Positions 5,368 through 13,837 are shown, numbered from the stretch's first letter. The stretch: DNA of 20,000 nucleotides from an uncultured virus (IMG/VR IMGVR_UViG_3300025705_000475) (IMGVR_UViG_3300025705_000475); one strand, 5' to 3'. Program-made: numbers and translations. The notes: generated from the letters alone by a model not told the origin.

Positions 5368-5799
5368 ATGAAAGTAGAAAAAGGTAACAACGTTAAAGTT
5401 CACTACACAGGAACTTTAGAAGACGGTAAAGAATTTGACAGTTCACGTAAACGTGGTGAAACACTTAATTTTGCAGTCGGCACTGGACAAATGATTGCAG
5501 GTTTTGATGCTGCTGTCGAGGGTATGGAAGTAGGTGAGATAAAGGACATAACTTTAGAACCAACTCAAGCGTACGGGGAAAGAAAAGATGAGGCGGTAAT
5601 GCCGGTTAATCGTAAGAACTTCCCTGAAGACTTTAAAGTTGAAGTAGGTGGTATGGTTCAAGGTCAGACTGAACAGGGTATGCCGATTCAAGCAACTATC
5701 GTAGGTGAAGATGAGGAAAATCTAATTTTAGATATGAATCACCCACTCGCTGGTAAGTCACTAAATTTTAATATTGAATTAGTAGAAATAGTAGAATAA
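5368..5799 (+). CDS. slyD: FKBP-type peptidyl-prolyl isomerase, SlyD/SlpA-type
   Basis: VKVHYTGTLEDGKEFDSS, GQMIAGFD, AYG, LDMNHPLAGKSLNFNIE; no His-rich tail. Confidence 0.92.
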   Translation: MKVEKGNNVKVHYTGTLEDGKEFDSSRKRGETLNFAVGTGQMIAGFDAAVEGMEVGEIKDITLEPTQAYGERKDEAVMPVNRKNFPEDFKVEVGGMVQGQTEQGMPIQATIVGEDEENLILDMNHPLAGKSLNFNIELVEIVE

Positions 5800-6236
5800 T
5801 GGTTTATTGGTTTACAGGACAGCCGTCACATGGTAAGACCGTGTTGGCTAATATGTTTAAAGAATCTCATCTACCTACCGCATATAGAATTGATGGTGAT
5901 GAGATGAGAGAATTGTTTACTAATAAAGATTATTCGATTAAAGGTAGGGTAACTAATGTGGATGCTGCTCAGAAAATTTCACATTATTTACACAATCAAG
6001 GAGATGACGTAATAGTTTCTTTAGTTTCACCTTATATAGACCAAAGAGAGGAATTTAAAAAACTATTAGGTGATGATTTAGTTGAAATTTATATTCACAC
6101 ATCAGAACCTAGAGAACGAGACCATTTTAAGTCTGAGGCGTATGTCGCACCTAAAGAAAACTTTATCGATATCGATACCACTGTAGATACACCTGAAGAA
6201 TCTCTTCAAAAAATTATATCTAAATTAGGATGGTAG
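5799..6236 (+). CDS. cysC: Adenylyl-sulfate (APS) kinase-like protein
   Basis: YWFTGQPSHGKT P-loop, IDGDEMR, DYSIKGR..N, VIVSLVSPY..QRE; shorter than cellular CysC. Confidence 0.8.
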   Translation: MVYWFTGQPSHGKTVLANMFKESHLPTAYRIDGDEMRELFTNKDYSIKGRVTNVDAAQKISHYLHNQGDDVIVSLVSPYIDQREEFKKLLGDDLVEIYIHTSEPRERDHFKSEAYVAPKENFIDIDTTVDTPEESLQKIISKLGW

Positions 6237-6598
6237 ATAAGAAATCGACAATATTTTGTGACATAGATGGAACGATATTCAAATATCGAAAGTTTGAAAC
6301 GTATGAAACTTCATCAGTCGAAGTTTTACCTGAAGTAAAAGAAAAGTTGGAGTCGTGGAGTAAAGATGGTCATATGGTAATTTTAACTACCGCAAGACCT
6401 GATTACCTCCACGACCACACCGTTAAAGAATTACAAGAGAACGGAATAATGTATGACCGTTTAATTACAGGAATTGAGAGGGGTCCGAGAATCTTAATTA
6501 ATGATATGGACCCTAATAAACCAGGTCAAAGAGCGTTTGGAGTAAACCTTAATAGAAATGAGGGGTTCCAAAGTATCGATTGGTCTAATTATATTTAA
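6230..6598 (+). CDS. Small HAD-superfamily phosphatase-like protein
   Basis: IFCDIDGTI (motif I), LTTARP (motif II), ILIND. Confidence 0.75.
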   Translation: MVDKKSTIFCDIDGTIFKYRKFETYETSSVEVLPEVKEKLESWSKDGHMVILTTARPDYLHDHTVKELQENGIMYDRLITGIERGPRILINDMDPNKPGQRAFGVNLNRNEGFQSIDWSNYI

Positions 6599-6607
6599 AT
6601 TTAAATT

Positions 6608-7000
6608 ATGAGTGATTGGAGTAGTAAATTTCACGTAGAATCATCAATGCCGGCTAGAGATGGTCAGTACGCGATGTTTGTAGGTAGATGGCAACCTTTA
6701 CATAAAGGACATCAAGAGTTATTTAAACAAGCAATGGATAAAGGTAAAAATGTTTTAATTTGTATTAGAGATGGAAAACCTAATGAAAAAAATCCATTTA
6801 CGGCGACAGAAGTTAAAGAAAACATTATGAATCATTATTCTTCCGAAGTTGAATCAGGTAAAATTGCAGTAACGATTATCCCTGATATTTGTTCAATTGA
6901 ATTTGGTAGAGGTGTTGGTTATGATATTATTGAACACACACCCCCTTCTGAAATCGGAGATATCTCAGCGACTAAGATTCGTAAAGAAATGGGTCTTTAA
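6608..7000 (+). CDS. HxGH nucleotidyltransferase (cytidylyltransferase-like)
   Basis: MFVGRWQPLHKGH, NPF and ISATKIR motifs. Confidence 0.85.
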   Translation: MSDWSSKFHVESSMPARDGQYAMFVGRWQPLHKGHQELFKQAMDKGKNVLICIRDGKPNEKNPFTATEVKENIMNHYSSEVESGKIAVTIIPDICSIEFGRGVGYDIIEHTPPSEIGDISATKIRKEMGL

Positions 7001-8390: not shown

Positions 8391-9002
8391 ATGAAATACA
8401 AATTAGAAGTTTACGGATGGTCAATGGAGGCGATGGCTCATTCATTAAATGACCAACAATTAGAGGATGTGGATATCCTTATGAAAGACAATAACTGTGA
8501 TGAACTATGGCAGATTAGGTCTGAGTTAGAAGACGTTGTTGACGATATGTGGGGACCCGATTTATTTCATATGAACGCACCTTTTTATAACGGTAGTACG
8601 TTCTTTAGAGTTGTAGATGAAAATGAAAAAGTAATTTTAGAATTTGATGAGAAAGATTTGGGTGACTTATATGAAAATGTTGAAGATGTTGATGATTTAT
8701 ACCCCTATGAATCCCATTTCGCTTCACCTAATTACCGTAACGATGGTGTTAAACATATTATGTTAGTTGTTGATGAAAATAAAGGTGGATTTTGTGAAAT
8801 GTTATTTGAATCTGACGAGGAACTTAAACCTGAAGATTTTTCTGTAATGGGAGGTGGTATTGATACACCTTTAGGTGAATGGGATTTTATCTCACGTATT
8901 TTCTTTAAAGATACCCTACTTGAGATTGACGATTGGTTAGATAATCGAGGTAAAGCGGCAACATTAGAGATTTATGCTGAAGATGGGAGAATCATACATT
9001 AA
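8391..9002 (+). CDS. Hypothetical highly acidic protein
   Basis: 203 aa D/E-rich ORF in operon context. Confidence 0.75.
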   Translation: MKYKLEVYGWSMEAMAHSLNDQQLEDVDILMKDNNCDELWQIRSELEDVVDDMWGPDLFHMNAPFYNGSTFFRVVDENEKVILEFDEKDLGDLYENVEDVDDLYPYESHFASPNYRNDGVKHIMLVVDENKGGFCEMLFESDEELKPEDFSVMGGGIDTPLGEWDFISRIFFKDTLLEIDDWLDNRGKAATLEIYAEDGRIIH

Positions 9003-9124
9003 TGAAACTAACTAAAATTAAATTAAATAATCAGAATCGTATGTTACGTATTGGTTTTGGTTTAAATAAAGGAAATAAATTCTTTAGAATTGATTTATGG
9101 TGGATAGGTTACAGATTATCCTAA
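9002..9124 (+). CDS. Small hypothetical basic protein (40 aa)
   Basis: Manual translation MKLTKIKLNNQNRMLRIGFGLNKGNKFFRIDLWWIGYRLS; TAATG stop/start overlap with upstream gene. Confidence 0.6.
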   Translation: MKLTKIKLNNQNRMLRIGFGLNKGNKFFRIDLWWIGYRLS

Positions 9125-9131
9125 AATAAAA

Positions 9132-9162
9132 TTTGACAATTGAAATAACTTAACTATATTTG
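9132..9162 (+). promoter_or_regulatory. Bacteroidota sigma70-type promoter of the tRNA operon
   Basis: TTTG (9132-9135), 19-nt spacer, TATATTTG (9155-9162); also contains TTGACA. Confidence 0.75.
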
Positions 9163-9195
9163 TAGAGTACAAACAAGTACAAAACTATTTTAAAA

Positions 9196-9267
9196 ATGAA
9201 TAAACGAAACACACATAATATAATATTAAGAAACTTATCAAGGATAAGAATCTTTAGTGTTATGTGA
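9196..9267 (+). CDS. Putative attenuator leader peptide MNKRNTHNIILRNLSRIRIFSVM
   Basis: A-rich initiation region; codon run ATA ATA TTA AGA AAC TTA TCA AGG ATA AGA (9220-9249); double stop TGA TAG; lies between promoter and terminator. Confidence 0.6.
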   Translation: MNKRNTHNIILRNLSRIRIFSVM

Positions 9268-9319
9268 TAGTTCGGTAAAACATAATGTAAAAAATAGACT
9301 TAAAGCTATGAAAAAGAAG

Positions 9320-9353
9320 AAGCCCGAACAGAGATGTTCGGGTTTTTTGTTTT
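9320..9353 (+). terminator. Intrinsic terminator (attenuator) upstream of the tRNA cluster
   Basis: AAGCCCGAACA-GAGA-TGTTCGGGTTT stem-loop followed by TTTGTTTT. Confidence 0.85.
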
Positions 9354-9364
9354 ATATTAGCAGT

Positions 9365-9376
9365 GTTCTTTGACAT
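9365..9376 (+). promoter_or_regulatory. boxA-like antitermination motif (GTTCTTTGACAT), copy 1
   Basis: Similar to rrn boxA consensus (TGCTCTTTAACA); exact copy at 10323-10334. Confidence 0.55.
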
Positions 9377-9413
9377 CAAGATTAAGTAACGACACAGTAT
9401 TCGGTAAAATACT

Positions 9414-9486
9414 GACCTCTTAGCTCAGCTGGTAGAGCATCACACTTTTAATGTGAGGGTCCAGGGTTCGAACCCCTGAGGGGTCA
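9414..9486 (+). tRNA. tRNA-Lys(UUU)
   Basis: Cloverleaf: GACCTCT/AGGGGTC acceptor, TCACA-CTTTTAA-TGTGA anticodon arm, TTCGAAC T-loop; no CCA. Confidence 0.95.
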
Positions 9487-9546
9487 CTATCGCCAATACT
9501 AAATCGAGTTTTGCGCCTCTACATAAAATATGGGTGTTTTCAACAT

Positions 9547-9620
9547 GGGGATGTAGCTCAGTTGGTTAGAGCAGGACTCTTATATGGTCAAGGTCGTAGG
9601 TTCAATTCCTACCGTCCCTA
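9547..9620 (+). tRNA. tRNA-Ile(UAU)
   Basis: GGGGATG/CGTCCCT acceptor; GGACT-CTTATAT-GGTCA arm with anticodon TAT at 9581-9583; TTCAATT T-loop; discriminator A. Confidence 0.88.
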
Positions 9621-9696
9621 CAATTAAATTAATTTAATAAAATAGTTGTTACTTAATCATTTGTACCGTACATTTACAGTATTGGAAGATATAGAT

Positions 9697-9782
9697 GCCG
9701 AAGTGGTGGAATTGGTAGACACGAGGGACTTAAAATCCCTTGGACAGTAATGTCCGTGACGGTTCGAGCCCGTCCTTCGGTA
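9697..9782 (+). tRNA. tRNA-Leu(UAA)
   Basis: GCCGAAG/CTTCGGT acceptor; AGGGA-CTTAAAA-TCCCT; long variable arm GGACA-GTAA-TGTCC. Confidence 0.95.
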
Positions 9783-9785
9783 CAC

Positions 9786-9844
9786 AGATAGGGAGTTATC
9801 CAATACGCGTTGGAACTAGATAACTTTAAAATAGAACCCTATCT
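9786..9844 (+). ncRNA. Unassigned structured RNA element A
   Basis: AGATAGGG/CCCTATCT closing stem, inner AGTTATC/GATAACT stem and CCAA-TACGCG-TTGG hairpin. Confidence 0.45.
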
Positions 9845-9869
9845 TTTACATGTACCCAACATACAGTTT

Positions 9870-9958
9870 AAGAGAGGTAGTGAAGCTACAATGATATAGA
9901 AAAAGGTAAGGGTTAACCTCTATATCGTAGTAACCCCGAAAGACCCGAAACCTCTCTT
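9870..9958 (+). ncRNA. Unassigned structured RNA element B, possible pseudoknot
   Basis: AAGAGAGGT/ACCTCTCTT, GCTAC/GTAGT, GATATAG/CTATATC and AGGT/ACCT nested stems; loop GGGTTA complementary to TAACCC (9931-9936). Confidence 0.5.
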
Positions 9959-9964
9959 TTACAT

Positions 9965-10038
9965 GCACCCATAGCTCAGCTGGATAGAGCATCTGCCTTC
10001 TAAGCAGACGGTCTCAGGTTCGAATCCTGATGGGTGTA
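9965..10038 (+). tRNA. tRNA-Arg(UCU)
   Basis: GCACCCA/TGGGTGT acceptor; TCTGC-CTTCTAA-GCAGA; TTCGAAT T-loop. Confidence 0.95.
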
Positions 10039-10241
10039 CTAACGTGTCAAAGTAACATTGACTAATGCGTCATACATGAAGAGAAATAAGGTAGAATCCT
10101 TATAGTGACTAATCAACTAGTGAGAATGCTAGTCGGAGTTTGAGTTCTCCTAATAAATAAAAACTTTATTCCTAACCAATATTGTTTATACTCTATTGGG
10201 ACATCCGTGACAGTTGTAGTTGGATAAAATAGACTGTTAAC

Positions 10242-10315
10242 GGACTTTTAGCTCAGTTGGTTAGAGCACCGCACTCATAATGCGTAGGTCGATGGTTCGA
10301 GTCCATCAAGGTCCA
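10242..10315 (+). tRNA. tRNA with CAU anticodon, probably tRNA-Ile2 (lysidine) rather than Met
   Basis: GGACTTT/AAGGTCC acceptor with C4-G69, resembling Bacillus-type Ile2 as recalled; CCGCA-CTCATAA-TGCGT arm; lacks initiator features. Confidence 0.85.
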
Positions 10316-10322
10316 CTAGTGA

Positions 10323-10334
10323 GTTCTTTGACAT
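10323..10334 (+). promoter_or_regulatory. boxA-like motif (GTTCTTTGACAT), copy 2
   Basis: Exact 12-nt copy of 9365-9376, just after the tRNA(CAU). Confidence 0.5.
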
Positions 10335-10360
10335 AAAAAATAAATTAAAAAATAGAAATT

Positions 10361-10696
10361 ATGGAAATAACATCATTTATTTTAGGTGTATGTACAGTCA
10401 TTGTATTAGTAATGGTTGTGGGTACGTTTGTGAACTATATGACAACAAAGTCCTTAAAAGAGGAAATAAACCGACTGAATCGAGAAAACGAAAATCAGTA
10501 TAATGAATCTGAAAAGATTAGAAAAGAACTAATAGATTATGTGGATAGTCTACATAATATTAGTGAAAATAACATGAACGAAGTCTATCGTCATATTGAC
10601 AGTAGAATCGACAAAACTGTAAATAATATGAGCGAACACGTTGCAGAAATTTATAGACAATTAGATAATAACAAAAAATCCGTAGTTAACGGATAA
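10361..10696 (+). CDS. Hypothetical protein with N-terminal TM helix and coiled coil
   Basis: Hydrophobic residues 3-26 followed by a charged heptad-like region. Confidence 0.75.
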   Translation: MEITSFILGVCTVIVLVMVVGTFVNYMTTKSLKEEINRLNRENENQYNESEKIRKELIDYVDSLHNISENNMNEVYRHIDSRIDKTVNNMSEHVAEIYRQLDNNKKSVVNG

Positions 10697-10774
10697 TAAG
10701 TAAAACGTTAAAGAACTCACTTTTTTAATTATGTATGAAAAAACCATCATTAGGTAAATTTTTTAAACTTAATG

Positions 10775-10805
10775 TTGGTTTTTTCATGCATTTACCATAT
10801 ATTTG
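10775..10805 (+). promoter_or_regulatory. Bacteroidota-type promoter (TTG-N20-TATATTTG)
   Basis: TTG at 10775-10777, TATATTTG at 10798-10805. Confidence 0.55.
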
Positions 10806-10826
10806 TACTCTAATAAAAAAACACTT

Positions 10827-11042
10827 ATGGGTAATATACTTAGTAAAATTGCAGACATGGAAGAAGATGGTACACTACCAAAATTTGACCCTAACTATTA
10901 TGTTGACGTTTTAAACTTAGCCAGAACGAAAGGACTAAGATTAGAGGTTATGTATACAGCTATGGATATTGTTAGAGAGCAACCTAATTTAACTAATGAG
11001 GTCGCCATTATTCAATCGGCTAAAAAATGGAATTTAGTATAA
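10827..11042 (+). CDS. Hypothetical protein
   Basis: ATG at 10827 (MGNILSK...) downstream of the promoter; the TTG start in the ORF track lies inside the -7 element. Confidence 0.7.
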   Translation: MGNILSKIADMEEDGTLPKFDPNYYVDVLNLARTKGLRLEVMYTAMDIVREQPNLTNEVAIIQSAKKWNLV

Positions 11043-11045
11043 AAA

Positions 11046-11119
11046 GCTTCCTTAGCTCAGTTGGCTAGAGCAGCTGATTTGTAATCAGCAGGTCGTGGGT
11101 TCGAGTCCCTCAGGAAGCT
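11046..11119 (+). tRNA. tRNA-Thr(UGU)
   Basis: GCTTCCT/AGGAAGC acceptor; GCTGA-TTTGTAA-TCAGC; one T-T mismatch in the T-stem. Confidence 0.93.
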
Positions 11120-11134
11120 CAAAATTTATTTATT

Positions 11135-11434
11135 ATGAGTCTTAAAAAAATACAAGAGGAATATAGAGAAACACCAAACAAGGAGTTAGTTAGTGCTGTG
11201 TTCGATAATTTTATATTTGGTCTACTTGGGGCAATCTTAGTTGTCTTTATCGCAGAAAGAGTGGATATATTAGTACTTTTAGGGTATATGATTTACTACT
11301 TTTTCTTAGGGAGAGTTGTTAATAGACCTAAATACGTAACAAGTTTAGGTAAATTTATTATATTTCCTGTACCAACCGCAATAGGGGCGTTTATAGGATA
11401 TAAATTAGCTTATTATTTAACACTTTTATTTTAA
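11135..11434 (+). CDS. Hypothetical membrane protein (about 3 TM)
   Basis: Three hydrophobic segments in 99 aa. Confidence 0.75.
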   Translation: MSLKKIQEEYRETPNKELVSAVFDNFIFGLLGAILVVFIAERVDILVLLGYMIYYFFLGRVVNRPKYVTSLGKFIIFPVPTAIGAFIGYKLAYYLTLLF

Positions 11435-12232: not shown

Positions 12233-13837
12233 ATGAAAAAAATACTATTTTTATTAATCTTCCTAAACACATTTTTAGTAAAAGGTCAATGTGACATTTC
12301 AATTAATGACTTTAATTTTACCACAGGAGAATTAGTGGTGGAAGTCATTAACTCAGAAAACTGTGGATGTAATGACCTCACCGATATTGAAACCTCCTGT
12401 AATACTTCAAGTAGTGGTTCTATTCAAAATAATGAAACAATAAGTCATATTGTTTTAGGTTTACACTTAGATGGTTTTGATTACCAATGGACTGATTGCG
12501 TTAGTGGTAATAACCATCCAGGGTGGACCTTTAAAAGTAAAAGTTTTTTTGGTAATTCTGTTTTAGAAACAGGCGACACATGGAGTACTAACATCTATGA
12601 TTTTTATGTCCCCACCAATGACTGCTGGTCCGATATTTTATCAAATAATGAAGAGTGTGTTGAATTAGTTATTTGGCAAATTAACCTATCTCAAACTTCT
12701 GAAGTTGCAGATGGAGGATGGGCAGTTAATCCTAATGTGGCTAATCAAACTCAAAATTATCCTGATTTTAATTTATTAGACAATGTGGTTACTATGTGTC
12801 CTGTGGTTTTCCCTGGTTGTACCGACCCTTTTGCACTAAACTATAATGAGGACGCAACAGAGGATGACGGTACTTGTGTTTTTTCAATAGGTCCCGACCC
12901 AATCATAATTGATGTTACTATTTCTGAAGAAGAATGTGAAGTATTTGATGCGGGTATTTTATCATCATTCGTTTATGAAGCGACTTTAGTAAACATAGGG
13001 ACTGAAGCGGTTACAAATTTTTGCCTTAGTGATTTTTTAGGTACTACTTTTAATTGTTTTAATGGGGTTTCTAATTTAGCAGTTTGGATTCAACCTGGAG
13101 ATACTATTACCGTGAGTGGTACGATTAATGGAGCGGGTACATGGATATCAGGACAAGGTAATTACTTTACAATTACGAGTGTACCTAATGAAATTATTAC
13201 TGGTAATAATAACTTTGTATTTAATATGGTAACCGGTGTTGATTGTGAACTACCTCCACCCTCATGTGATACGATATACGTAACTGAAACAGAATTCTTA
13301 ACTGACACTATCTACGTAACTGAAACAGAATTCTTAACTGACACTATCTACGTAACTGAAACAGAATTCTTAACTGACACCCTTTATATAACACAAACCC
13401 TTACGGATACAGTAGAAGTCTTGGTGGATAATTACATTTATGAAACTGATACACTAACAGTTATTGAAACTCAGTTAATTGATTGTGAAACTGGAGAAGA
13501 ATGTGTTGACCCACCAGGATTAAGTGAATGTTGGCCTTGGACAGTTTATATCCCAAATACGTTCACCCCAAATAATGACGGAATTAATGATATATGGCAA
13601 ATTATATATGATTTAGATTGTTGGGTTGACGTGGAGTTTAAAATTTTTAATAGGTGGGGGTCTCAAATATATTATGGATTTGTTGAGGATTTTGAAACTT
13701 ACCCGTATTGGGATGGGAGTATAAATGGTGGAGATTATTATGTTTCAGATGGGGTATATCTTTACACTTTTTATGGTCGTAAAAGTGATTCACCTGAGAT
13801 TTTAGAGGAGTCTGGACATATAACAATATTTAGGTAA
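12233..13837 (+). CDS. Secreted protein with gliding-motility-associated (T9SS type B, CHU_C-like) C-terminal domain
   Basis: Signal peptide ..VKG/Q; GCTDPFALNYNEDATEDDGTC repeat motif; Thr-rich linker; C-terminal IPNTFTPNNDGINDIW..IFNRWG..WDG..DGVYLY..GHITIFR. Confidence 0.85.
   Translation: MKKILFLLIFLNTFLVKGQCDISINDFNFTTGELVVEVINSENCGCNDLTDIETSCNTSSSGSIQNNETISHIVLGLHLDGFDYQWTDCVSGNNHPGWTFKSKSFFGNSVLETGDTWSTNIYDFYVPTNDCWSDILSNNEECVELVIWQINLSQTSEVADGGWAVNPNVANQTQNYPDFNLLDNVVTMCPVVFPGCTDPFALNYNEDATEDDGTCVFSIGPDPIIIDVTISEEECEVFDAGILSSFVYEATLVNIGTEAVTNFCLSDFLGTTFNCFNGVSNLAVWIQPGDTITVSGTINGAGTWISGQGNYFTITSVPNEIITGNNNFVFNMVTGVDCELPPPSCDTIYVTETEFLTDTIYVTETEFLTDTIYVTETEFLTDTLYITQTLTDTVEVLVDNYIYETDTLTVIETQLIDCETGEECVDPPGLSECWPWTVYIPNTFTPNNDGINDIWQIIYDLDCWVDVEFKIFNRWGSQIYYGFVEDFETYPYWDGSINGGDYYVSDGVYLYTFYGRKSDSPEILEESGHITIFR
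13277..13380 (+). repeat. In-frame 36-bp tandem repeat, about 2.9 perfect copies (YVTETEFLTDTI)
   Basis: Unit TACGTAACTGAAACAGAATTCTTAACTGACACTATC at 13277, 13313 and 13349. Confidence 0.95.

Follow-up and report, generated by a model that had tools for sequence, protein, structure and literature searches.

Organization of the leader region and tRNA array

The window analyzed here is a 20,000-nucleotide (nt) stretch of DNA from an uncultured virus (IMG/VR IMGVR_UViG_3300025705_000475), the source being a large marine phage with a host of the Bacteroidota type. The window carries an array of tRNA genes that is preceded by a short leader, and this leader, as a candidate regulator of the array, is the subject of the analysis. 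An earlier note on this DNA had placed a promoter (9132-9162), a 23-codon open reading frame (ORF, 9196-9267), and a strong terminator before the first tRNA gene, and all three were seen at those positions. The note had also described the strand GTTCGG, 2 nt past the stop codon and able to pair with CCGAAC in the 5' arm of the terminator, and a helix of 9258-9265 with 9280-9287; both exist. A boxA-like 12-mer located after the terminator was absent from that note. The features are listed in Table 1.

Table 1. Features of the leader region and tRNA array, in window positions
Feature	Position	Strand	Remarks
-33 element TTTGACA	9132-9138	+	Kept in leader types A, B (as TTTGATA), and C
-7 box TATATTTG (TAnnTTTG type)	9155-9162	+	33 nt 5' of leader ATG; identical in the three leader types
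Leader ORF, 23 codons plus TGA, peptide MNKRNTHNIILRNLSRIRIFSVM	9196-9267	+	ATG at 9196, stop codon at 9265-9267
Intra-ORF hairpin	9218-9265 (9218-9231 with 9251-9265)	+	Ends at stop codon; in minimum-free-energy and consensus structures
Alternative stop hairpin	9258-9287 (9258-9265 with 9280-9287)	+	GTTCGG in loop; read from alignments
Antiterminator strand GTTCGG	9270-9275	+	2 nt past stop codon; complementary to CCGAAC at 9324-9329
Intrinsic terminator	9317-9353	+	Core CCCGAAC (9323-9329)/GTTCGGG (9336-9342), A/U extension, T run; stem 9317-9348, 14 pairs
TATATTAG, 5-of-6 match to -7 box	9353-9360	+	Overlaps T run; 4 nt before boxA-like element
boxA-like 12-mer GTTCTTTGACAT	9365-9376	+	Twelve bases past terminator T run
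Hairpin CAGUAUU/AAUACUG	9395-9414	+	Adjoins +1 of tRNA-Lys; 5' arm and loop repeat UUCGGUAAA
tRNA array Lys-UUU, Ile-UAU, Leu-UAA, Arg-UCU, Met-CAU	9414-10316	+	From tRNA and Rfam scans
tRNA starts	9414 (Lys-UUU), 9547 (Ile-UAU), 9697 (Leu-UAA), 9965 (Arg-UCU), 10242 (Met-CAU), 11046 (Thr-UGU)	+	
Second boxA-like copy	10323-10334	+	Just past last array tRNA
tRNA-Thr-UGU	11046-11120	+	Past three small ORFs

The leader promoter, with 19 nt from its TTG to its TA, ranks first of the 101 sigma-70-like sites in the window (11 of 12 matches), the total of such sites not being above that of shuffled sequences (mean 107.8). Its -7 box fits TAnnTTTG, which the available text of one study gives as the sigma-A -7 box of flavobacteria (PMC9723704). 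The ATG of the leader ORF lies in an A-rich context with no Shine-Dalgarno sequence, which fits the lack of Shine-Dalgarno sequences in members of the phylum, as described in the accessible part of a further source (PMC6847099).

The terminator is the top of 10 terminator-like sites in the window. The transcript from 9168 to 9353 folds at -43 kcal/mol (z -6.46), and none of 200 shuffled sequences was as stable. Relative to the stop codon, the antiterminator strand of the window occupies +1 to +9. Before the terminator 3' arm emerges, the nascent untranslated RNA contains the GTTCGG/CCGAAC helix in its minimum-energy fold, and the helix has a probability of 0.67. Placing a modelled ribosome on codons 9-17 gave 0.61-0.89, and placing it at the stop codon gave 0, a value that follows by construction.

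The codons of the leader were compared with those of the phage genes, in which AAA accounts for 80% of Lys, TTA for 64% of Leu, and AGA for 57% of Arg codons. The earlier note had counted ten of the 22 codons after the ATG, and 8 of 10 in the run at 9220-9249, as belonging to a named set read by the downstream tRNAs, and these counts are right. When every codon readable by the six array tRNAs was included, the leader had 11 of 22, compared to 24.4% of 5218 gene codons (binomial P 0.008); a comparison with codon usage elsewhere had been among the checks proposed in the note. At least 11 such codons were present in 69 of 4588 gene windows of the same length, and the two off-frames of the leader scored 6 and 7. 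Each of the six tRNA species had at least one codon in the leader (P 0.032), and for amino acids with an array tRNA, Met and Trp excluded, 10 of 12 codons were array-read versus 6.7 expected. The codon signal from the window alone is modest, and that from the relatives described below is strong.

Leader types within the lineage

Sixteen loci of the same lineage (4 viral contigs and 12 metagenome loci; exact-pattern scans) collapsed to three independent leader types. Despite insertions and deletions, all three retain the promoter boxes, the ATG, an open frame, GTTCGG, the terminator, and the whole stretch from 9268 to the tRNA. The leader ORF and stems, whose conservation the earlier note had wanted examined, are kept in three diverged leader types. 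Type A is that of the window, and in one of its subtypes the ORF ends, at an unchanged position, in TAA and not TGA. In type B, the sequence 5' of the promoter is unrelated, and a deletion has removed 13 nt from the ORF, which is shifted in frame yet open for 26 codons and reads through GTTCGG.

Type C has a leader 83% identical to that of the window, with a 23-codon ORF that again stops 2 nt before GTTCGG and a peptide that has 11 of 23 residues in common with type A. Its array contains tRNA-Ser-UGA and tRNA-Tyr-GUA in addition. Six of the 22 codons of its leader are Tyr or TCR codons (TAC, TAC, TAT, TCG, TCA, and TCA; 3 Tyr and 3 TCR), compared to 1 of 22 in the window (0 Tyr, 1 TCR), 3 of 25 in type B, and a gene baseline of 7.3% (P 0.004 for type C). 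Its own eight tRNAs can read 18 of the 22 codons (binomial P 1.8e-6), a score reached by none of the 4588 gene windows, and all eight species are covered. The off-frames of type C have only 9 and 6 array-readable codons of 22, which argues that base composition is not the cause.

The secondary structures were retained to differing degrees. The terminator 3' arm has one G.U change in type C. The intra-ORF hairpin has 1 compensatory pair and loses several pairs in type C. The stop hairpin, the outer end of which has two G.U pairs, is retained in types B and C by G.U/A-U changes and is longer in type C.

Leader families in other phages

Viral contigs were scanned for boxA followed by a tRNA, which gave at least 117 loci; all figures for the class, here and below, are figures among the matches listed. 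A leader was called from the T-run-bearing perfect hairpin closest to boxA on its 5' side, at most 330 nt away, together with the longest ATG-initiated ORF of 15-60 codons ending no more than 100 nt ahead of this hairpin. Once the window and 3 lineage loci had been added, at least 67 loci had a terminator and at least 66 of those had an ORF. The leaders form at least 28 peptide clusters at 60% identity. An ORF of 22 codons or more was found in all 28 clusters versus 23% of shuffled upstream regions, and an exact -7 box lies at a similar distance from the leader in 12 of the 28 families.

Codon tests were performed on the 17 clusters with at least 5 downstream tRNAs, the 11 clusters with fewer being left out. 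The mean fraction of leader codons read by the leader's own array was 0.574, compared to 0.398 in long ORFs of the same loci and 0.346 in the off-frames of the leaders, and the leader was above its own gene baseline in 16 of 17 clusters. When the arrays were reshuffled among leaders, the fraction was 0.428 +- 0.023, and 0 of 20000 shuffles reached 0.574. Both levels of choice contributed: 345 of 525 residues matched the array versus 280.8 expected by amino acid (z 6.1), and 274 of 317 codons matched versus 238.0 expected by synonymous choice (z 6.4). A leader codon was present for 92% of array tRNA species, compared to 63% in gene windows of equal length, and 8 of the 17 clusters had one for every species. 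For example, the leader MQTQMNHIIENCFSQVAYAKWTGNDRDLGFRS precedes an array with tRNAs for Phe, His, Ser, Ile, Arg, Cys, Trp, Asn, Lys, Val, Tyr, Gln, Thr, Ala, and Glu. Read as sequence, these leaders look like codon lists. Covariation of leader codons with the anticodon set, a further check named in the earlier note, was found both within the lineage, in type C, and across 17 families.

To assess the antiterminator, the 70 nt surrounding the stop codon were paired with the terminator 5' arm in all 28 clusters, and the most favorable duplex was taken. The stop region paired with its own terminator arm at -12.2 kcal/mol versus -7.9 kcal/mol with the arms of other clusters (0 of 20000 permutations). 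Terminator stems vary by family, for example AGTTCAGGGTT, TCCGAGGT, GTCGGGT, and GGGCTTA, and the upstream copy follows, which constitutes covariation for the antiterminator helix. The paired strand always lay between -31 and +16 from the end of the stop codon, that is, where a terminating ribosome would cover the strand or have just unwound it. This covariation of the stop-codon strand with the terminator 5' arm in 28 families supports the attenuator interpretation offered in the earlier note.

Two side observations concern the sequences of this set. The leaders of L093, L099, L092, L165, L180, and the window (9196-9225) have in common the N-terminal pattern M-K/N-x-x-S/T-H-N-I/V, which is unrelated to tRNA content and may be a signal at the level of the RNA or the nascent peptide. 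The arrays of L136 and L138 contain a tRNA called by ARAGORN as Stop-UUA; such a tRNA would decode UAA stop codons as sense and is a possible suppressor tRNA.

Proposed attenuation mechanism

Taken as sequence evidence, the parts themselves, the order in which they stand, the match in codons, and the covariation make it probable that the leader is a ribosome-mediated transcription attenuator that sets transcription of the tRNA array by feedback on tRNA supply. In the mechanism that we infer, host RNA polymerase would initiate at the strong promoter (-7 box at 9155-9162), and a ribosome would translate the 23-codon leader, which holds at least one codon for each phage-encoded tRNA. With fast decoding, the ribosome would be at the stop codon (9265-9267) while the polymerase is approximately 50-80 nt ahead; it would cover GUUCGG (9270-9275), the hairpin at 9317-9348 would form, and transcription would end with the array off. 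With slow decoding of any listed codon, or with no translation, GUUCGG would pair with CCGAAC in the terminator 5' arm, and this pairing would delay the terminator so that the polymerase reads on. Past the terminator, the polymerase would transcribe the boxA-like element, NusB/NusE would presumably be recruited, the long untranslated transcript would be protected, and the tRNAs would be made. In this way, exactly those tRNAs that the phage encodes would have their supply placed under negative feedback.

For the class as a whole, it may well be that the at least 28 leader families of uncultured Bacteroidota-type phages each act as a tRNA homeostat, in which a leader in the form of a codon list lets ribosome speed set read-through. 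A tRNA in short supply would be topped up, including after cleavage of the matching host tRNAs by host defences, for which the earlier note had suggested anticodon nucleases such as PrrC or PARIS, and the leader would then be a sensor of tRNA-targeting immunity. If so, attenuation would have a new use, namely feedback on tRNA supply rather than on amino-acid synthesis, with many codons sensed at once. It would also give a handle on why phages carry particular tRNA sets and on their response to host tRNA depletion or cleavage, and the leader sequence would predict the codons that limit each phage. The module is small (approximately 250 nt) and movable into reporters.

Several results weigh against attenuation by a leader ribosome. 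The caveat of the earlier note that the antiterminator is short stands: in the window the helix has only 6 base pairs at -8.3 kcal/mol (z -1.6 versus shuffles), and it ties with that of type C as the weakest of 26 clusters with clear leaders, only those of the doubtful L075 and L096 scoring below it. The finished transcript favors the terminator by approximately 21 kcal/mol (-48.0 versus -26.6 kcal/mol with the helix enforced). In type C, nested folding gave the antiterminator helix a probability of only 0.02-0.05, as the pairing there would be a pseudoknot; nested folding cannot score such loop-to-arm pairing, so the low probability is not decisive. The earlier note had looked to a conserved spacing between the stop codon and GTTCGG, and this did not hold up, as the deletion in type B carries the ORF through GTTCGG to a stop codon 14 nt beyond it.

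The codon evidence has points on the same side. The clusters share ancestry and so are not phylogenetically independent, and some arrays are incomplete because the 3-kb flank or the contig ends within them. The leader of L096 scores below its gene baseline, and among the 17 arrays its own ranks only 5th for the window leader and 9th for type B. The largest cluster pairs one identical leader peptide with differing arrays, which indicates that the tracking of array by leader is loose on short time scales, and a complete array in this cluster has no tRNAs for several of the leader codons.

Alternative explanations

An attenuator that senses the general status of translation, whether ribosome availability, ribosome-polymerase coupling, or host translation shut-off, is an unlikely alternative in which the codon match would be a by-product of preferred codons. 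It accommodates the identical leaders with different arrays in one cluster and the N-terminal pattern that is unrelated to tRNA content. It also accommodates the behavior of the window model, in which the default with no ribosome is read-through (helix probability 0.67), so that any translation block would turn the array on. However, in all but one of the 17 clusters the leader lies above the gene baseline of its phage, the match of leaders to their own arrays was equaled in none of the 20000 permutations, and the leaders have a synonymous bias toward the array as well as the higher coverage of tRNA species given above. In type C, moreover, Tyr and TCR codons were gained together with the matching tRNAs.

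Rather less likely still is that the promoter, ORF, and terminator are a separate unit, either a gene for a 23-residue peptide or an RNA of approximately 180 nt, and that the tRNAs are transcribed from a weak promoter at TATATTAG or through a constitutive leak of the terminator. The remaining points against attenuation bear on this possibility. With its 5-of-6 match to the -7 box, TATATTAG sits between the terminator and boxA and is a possible weak second promoter; when the sequence was read directly, however, no TTG was found at the proper distance 5' of it. An exact -7 box lies between the terminator and the first tRNA in 5 of 28 clusters, in L181 at the same place as the 5-of-6 box of the window, which indicates that some members have a second promoter. 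The other 23 clusters have no exact box there, and in 7 of these the first tRNA begins 8-17 nt past the terminator, a gap that leaves no room for a second promoter. One of the 16 lineage loci, L046 (a 4.5-kb contig at 1.7x coverage), retains the leader's 3' half along with its terminator, boxA, and tRNAs, with unrelated sequence replacing the promoter and ATG. The strength of the terminator would also suit a self-contained unit. Such a unit nevertheless leaves unexplained both the tracking of the terminator arm by the stop-codon strand and the sampling of array codons by the ORF, and the peptide is not conserved, being frame-shifted in type B by the 13-nt deletion.

Direct binding of a tRNA or protein to the conserved loop (A)GUUCGGUAA(A) of the hairpin, in the style of a T-box or a protein-dependent antiterminator and with the ORF incidental, is very improbable: the occurrence of UUCGGUAAA both in the stop-hairpin loop and in the tRNA-Lys hairpin would fit it, but no T-box or other Rfam family besides tRNAs was found at 8900-11300, other families carry unrelated sequences here that each match their own terminator arm, and the ORF is kept and codon-biased.

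The boxA-like element

The 12-mer GTTCTTTGACAT resembles the boxA consensus of E. coli and B. subtilis. It occurs in exactly 2 exact copies per record in 3 of 3 relatives, always flanking the array, a distribution that argues against a general phage promoter. As a phage promoter or a repeat at a cassette boundary it was ruled out, given two copies per record, no -7 box following, and the presence of its 10-mer in rRNA spacers. For the latter, bacterial genomes were scanned with the first 10 bases of GTTCTTTGACAT followed by a tRNA D-arm motif. A real tRNA came next in 54 of the 121 resulting loci, and in 20 of the 121 the 10-mer was within an rRNA operon, at most 400 nt past the 3' end of 16S and before tRNA-Ile-GAU.

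Bacterial boxA binds NusB/NusE and guards untranslated transcripts against Rho, and E. coli rrn operons have two boxA copies, according to the portion of a published account that is available (PMC4807359). The phage element is like the Nus antitermination systems of rRNA operons and lambda nut in that the 12-mer stands before a long untranslated stable-RNA operon, with a second copy further on, and in that bacterial rRNA spacers have the same 10-mer. These similarities suggest that GTTCTTTGACAT is boxA-like and would function through Nus factors. It differs in lying past the regulated terminator; it therefore cannot suppress this terminator and would shield only those polymerases that are already through.

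Comparison with known regulatory systems

The leader is like the trpL, hisL, pheL, thrL, and leuL attenuators in having a promoter-proximal short ORF rich in codons related to the product, with an intrinsic terminator placed ahead of the genes under control and a strand at the end of the ORF that can pair with the terminator 5' arm, such that ribosome position decides. It is unlike them in several respects. The product is a tRNA array, not enzymes, and the phage ORF samples one to a few codons for many tRNAs, whereas the amino-acid attenuators have a run for one amino acid. No anti-antiterminator is needed in the window, and the untranslated state consequently reads through. The element is located in a phage of Bacteroidota, has boxA next to it, and matches no Rfam leader. 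What sets it apart from trp/his-type attenuators is its target, a tRNA array, together with the list of many codons, the phage context, and the boxA that comes next. Leader-peptide attenuation was proposed as likely for amino-acid operons in a flavobacterium, in the text available for that study (PMC9723704).

T-box riboswitches are similar in that tRNA status controls terminator read-through by way of a short antiterminator helix. They regulate synthetases and amino-acid genes and are not known to control tRNA genes. They also bind uncharged tRNA through a specifier loop and T-box sequence and have no ORF, and none was found here. An Rfam scan of 8900-11300 (E up to 1) gave only tRNAs above the gathering score, with no T-box and no Trp, His, Leu, or Thr leader. 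Over the leader, the sole non-tRNA match was the MicC small RNA, which at 29.5 bits versus a gathering score of 90 was taken as chance.

The array is like phage tRNA clusters regarded as a codon supplement or as a counter to tRNA-cleaving defences in that it serves heavily used A/U-ending codons. Published work on phage tRNAs, as far as the available text of one source goes, addresses why the tRNAs are carried and not how their levels are set (PMC10264068). In a full-text literature search, no published description was found, within the portions of text returned, of phage tRNA genes preceded by an attenuator or a leader peptide, nor in the literature searched, to the same extent, any description of how phages set their own tRNA levels.

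Other features of the window and its relatives

Window proteins include a ClpP-like protease, lysis enzymes, nucleotide-sugar enzymes, and one protein with a CHU_C type IX secretion sorting domain. The last, a phage protein of 534 residues encoded at 12233-13837, has this domain at its C terminus, which suggests export through the type IX secretion system of the host and a Bacteroidota host. Three adjacent small genes at 5799-7000 encode an APS-kinase-like P-loop kinase, a HAD phosphatase, and a cytidylyltransferase-like protein, and look like a split nucleotide-sugar or polynucleotide kinase-phosphatase module. Searches of a phage collection for cultured relatives, by DNA and by protein, revealed none, as they returned nothing or matches to tRNAs alone. 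Marine metatranscriptome runs contained approximately half of the words sampled from 8400-10400.

A viral contig of 198.8 kb, a separate record, is nearly identical to the window and has an additional 245 bp between its tRNA-Arg and tRNA-Met. The Rfam tRNA matches of the three large records all fell within the array region. A tRNA-like gene of 116-117 nt follows directly after tRNA-Arg in L070 (G002 101849-101964) and L072 (G004 122087-122203). It has an insert of 35-41 nt in the anticodon region, and it scored 39.4 and 38.1 bits with the Rfam tRNA model; ARAGORN run with introns gave inconsistent anticodons. The gene is absent from the window owing to the 245-bp difference, and the leader of the window is the same as that of G002.

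Repeats and conserved stretches were also observed in the leader and the array. The 9-mer UUCGGUAAA is present twice, at 9271-9279 in the stop-hairpin loop and at 9400-9408 in the 5' arm and loop of the tRNA-Lys hairpin. The 181-nt spacer between tRNA-Leu and tRNA-Arg (9784-9964) folds at -43.7 kcal/mol (z -3.5 versus mononucleotide shuffles) and repeats CTTTTACATG(T/C)ACCCA, the second copy extending into the 5' end of tRNA-Arg. The 5' flank of tRNA-Ile-UAU at 9505-9546 (GAGTTTTGCGCCTCTACATA...GGTGTTTTCAACATGGG) is conserved in the otherwise unrelated phage contigs L010, L017, L018, and L022, which is unusual for the 5' flank of a tRNA.

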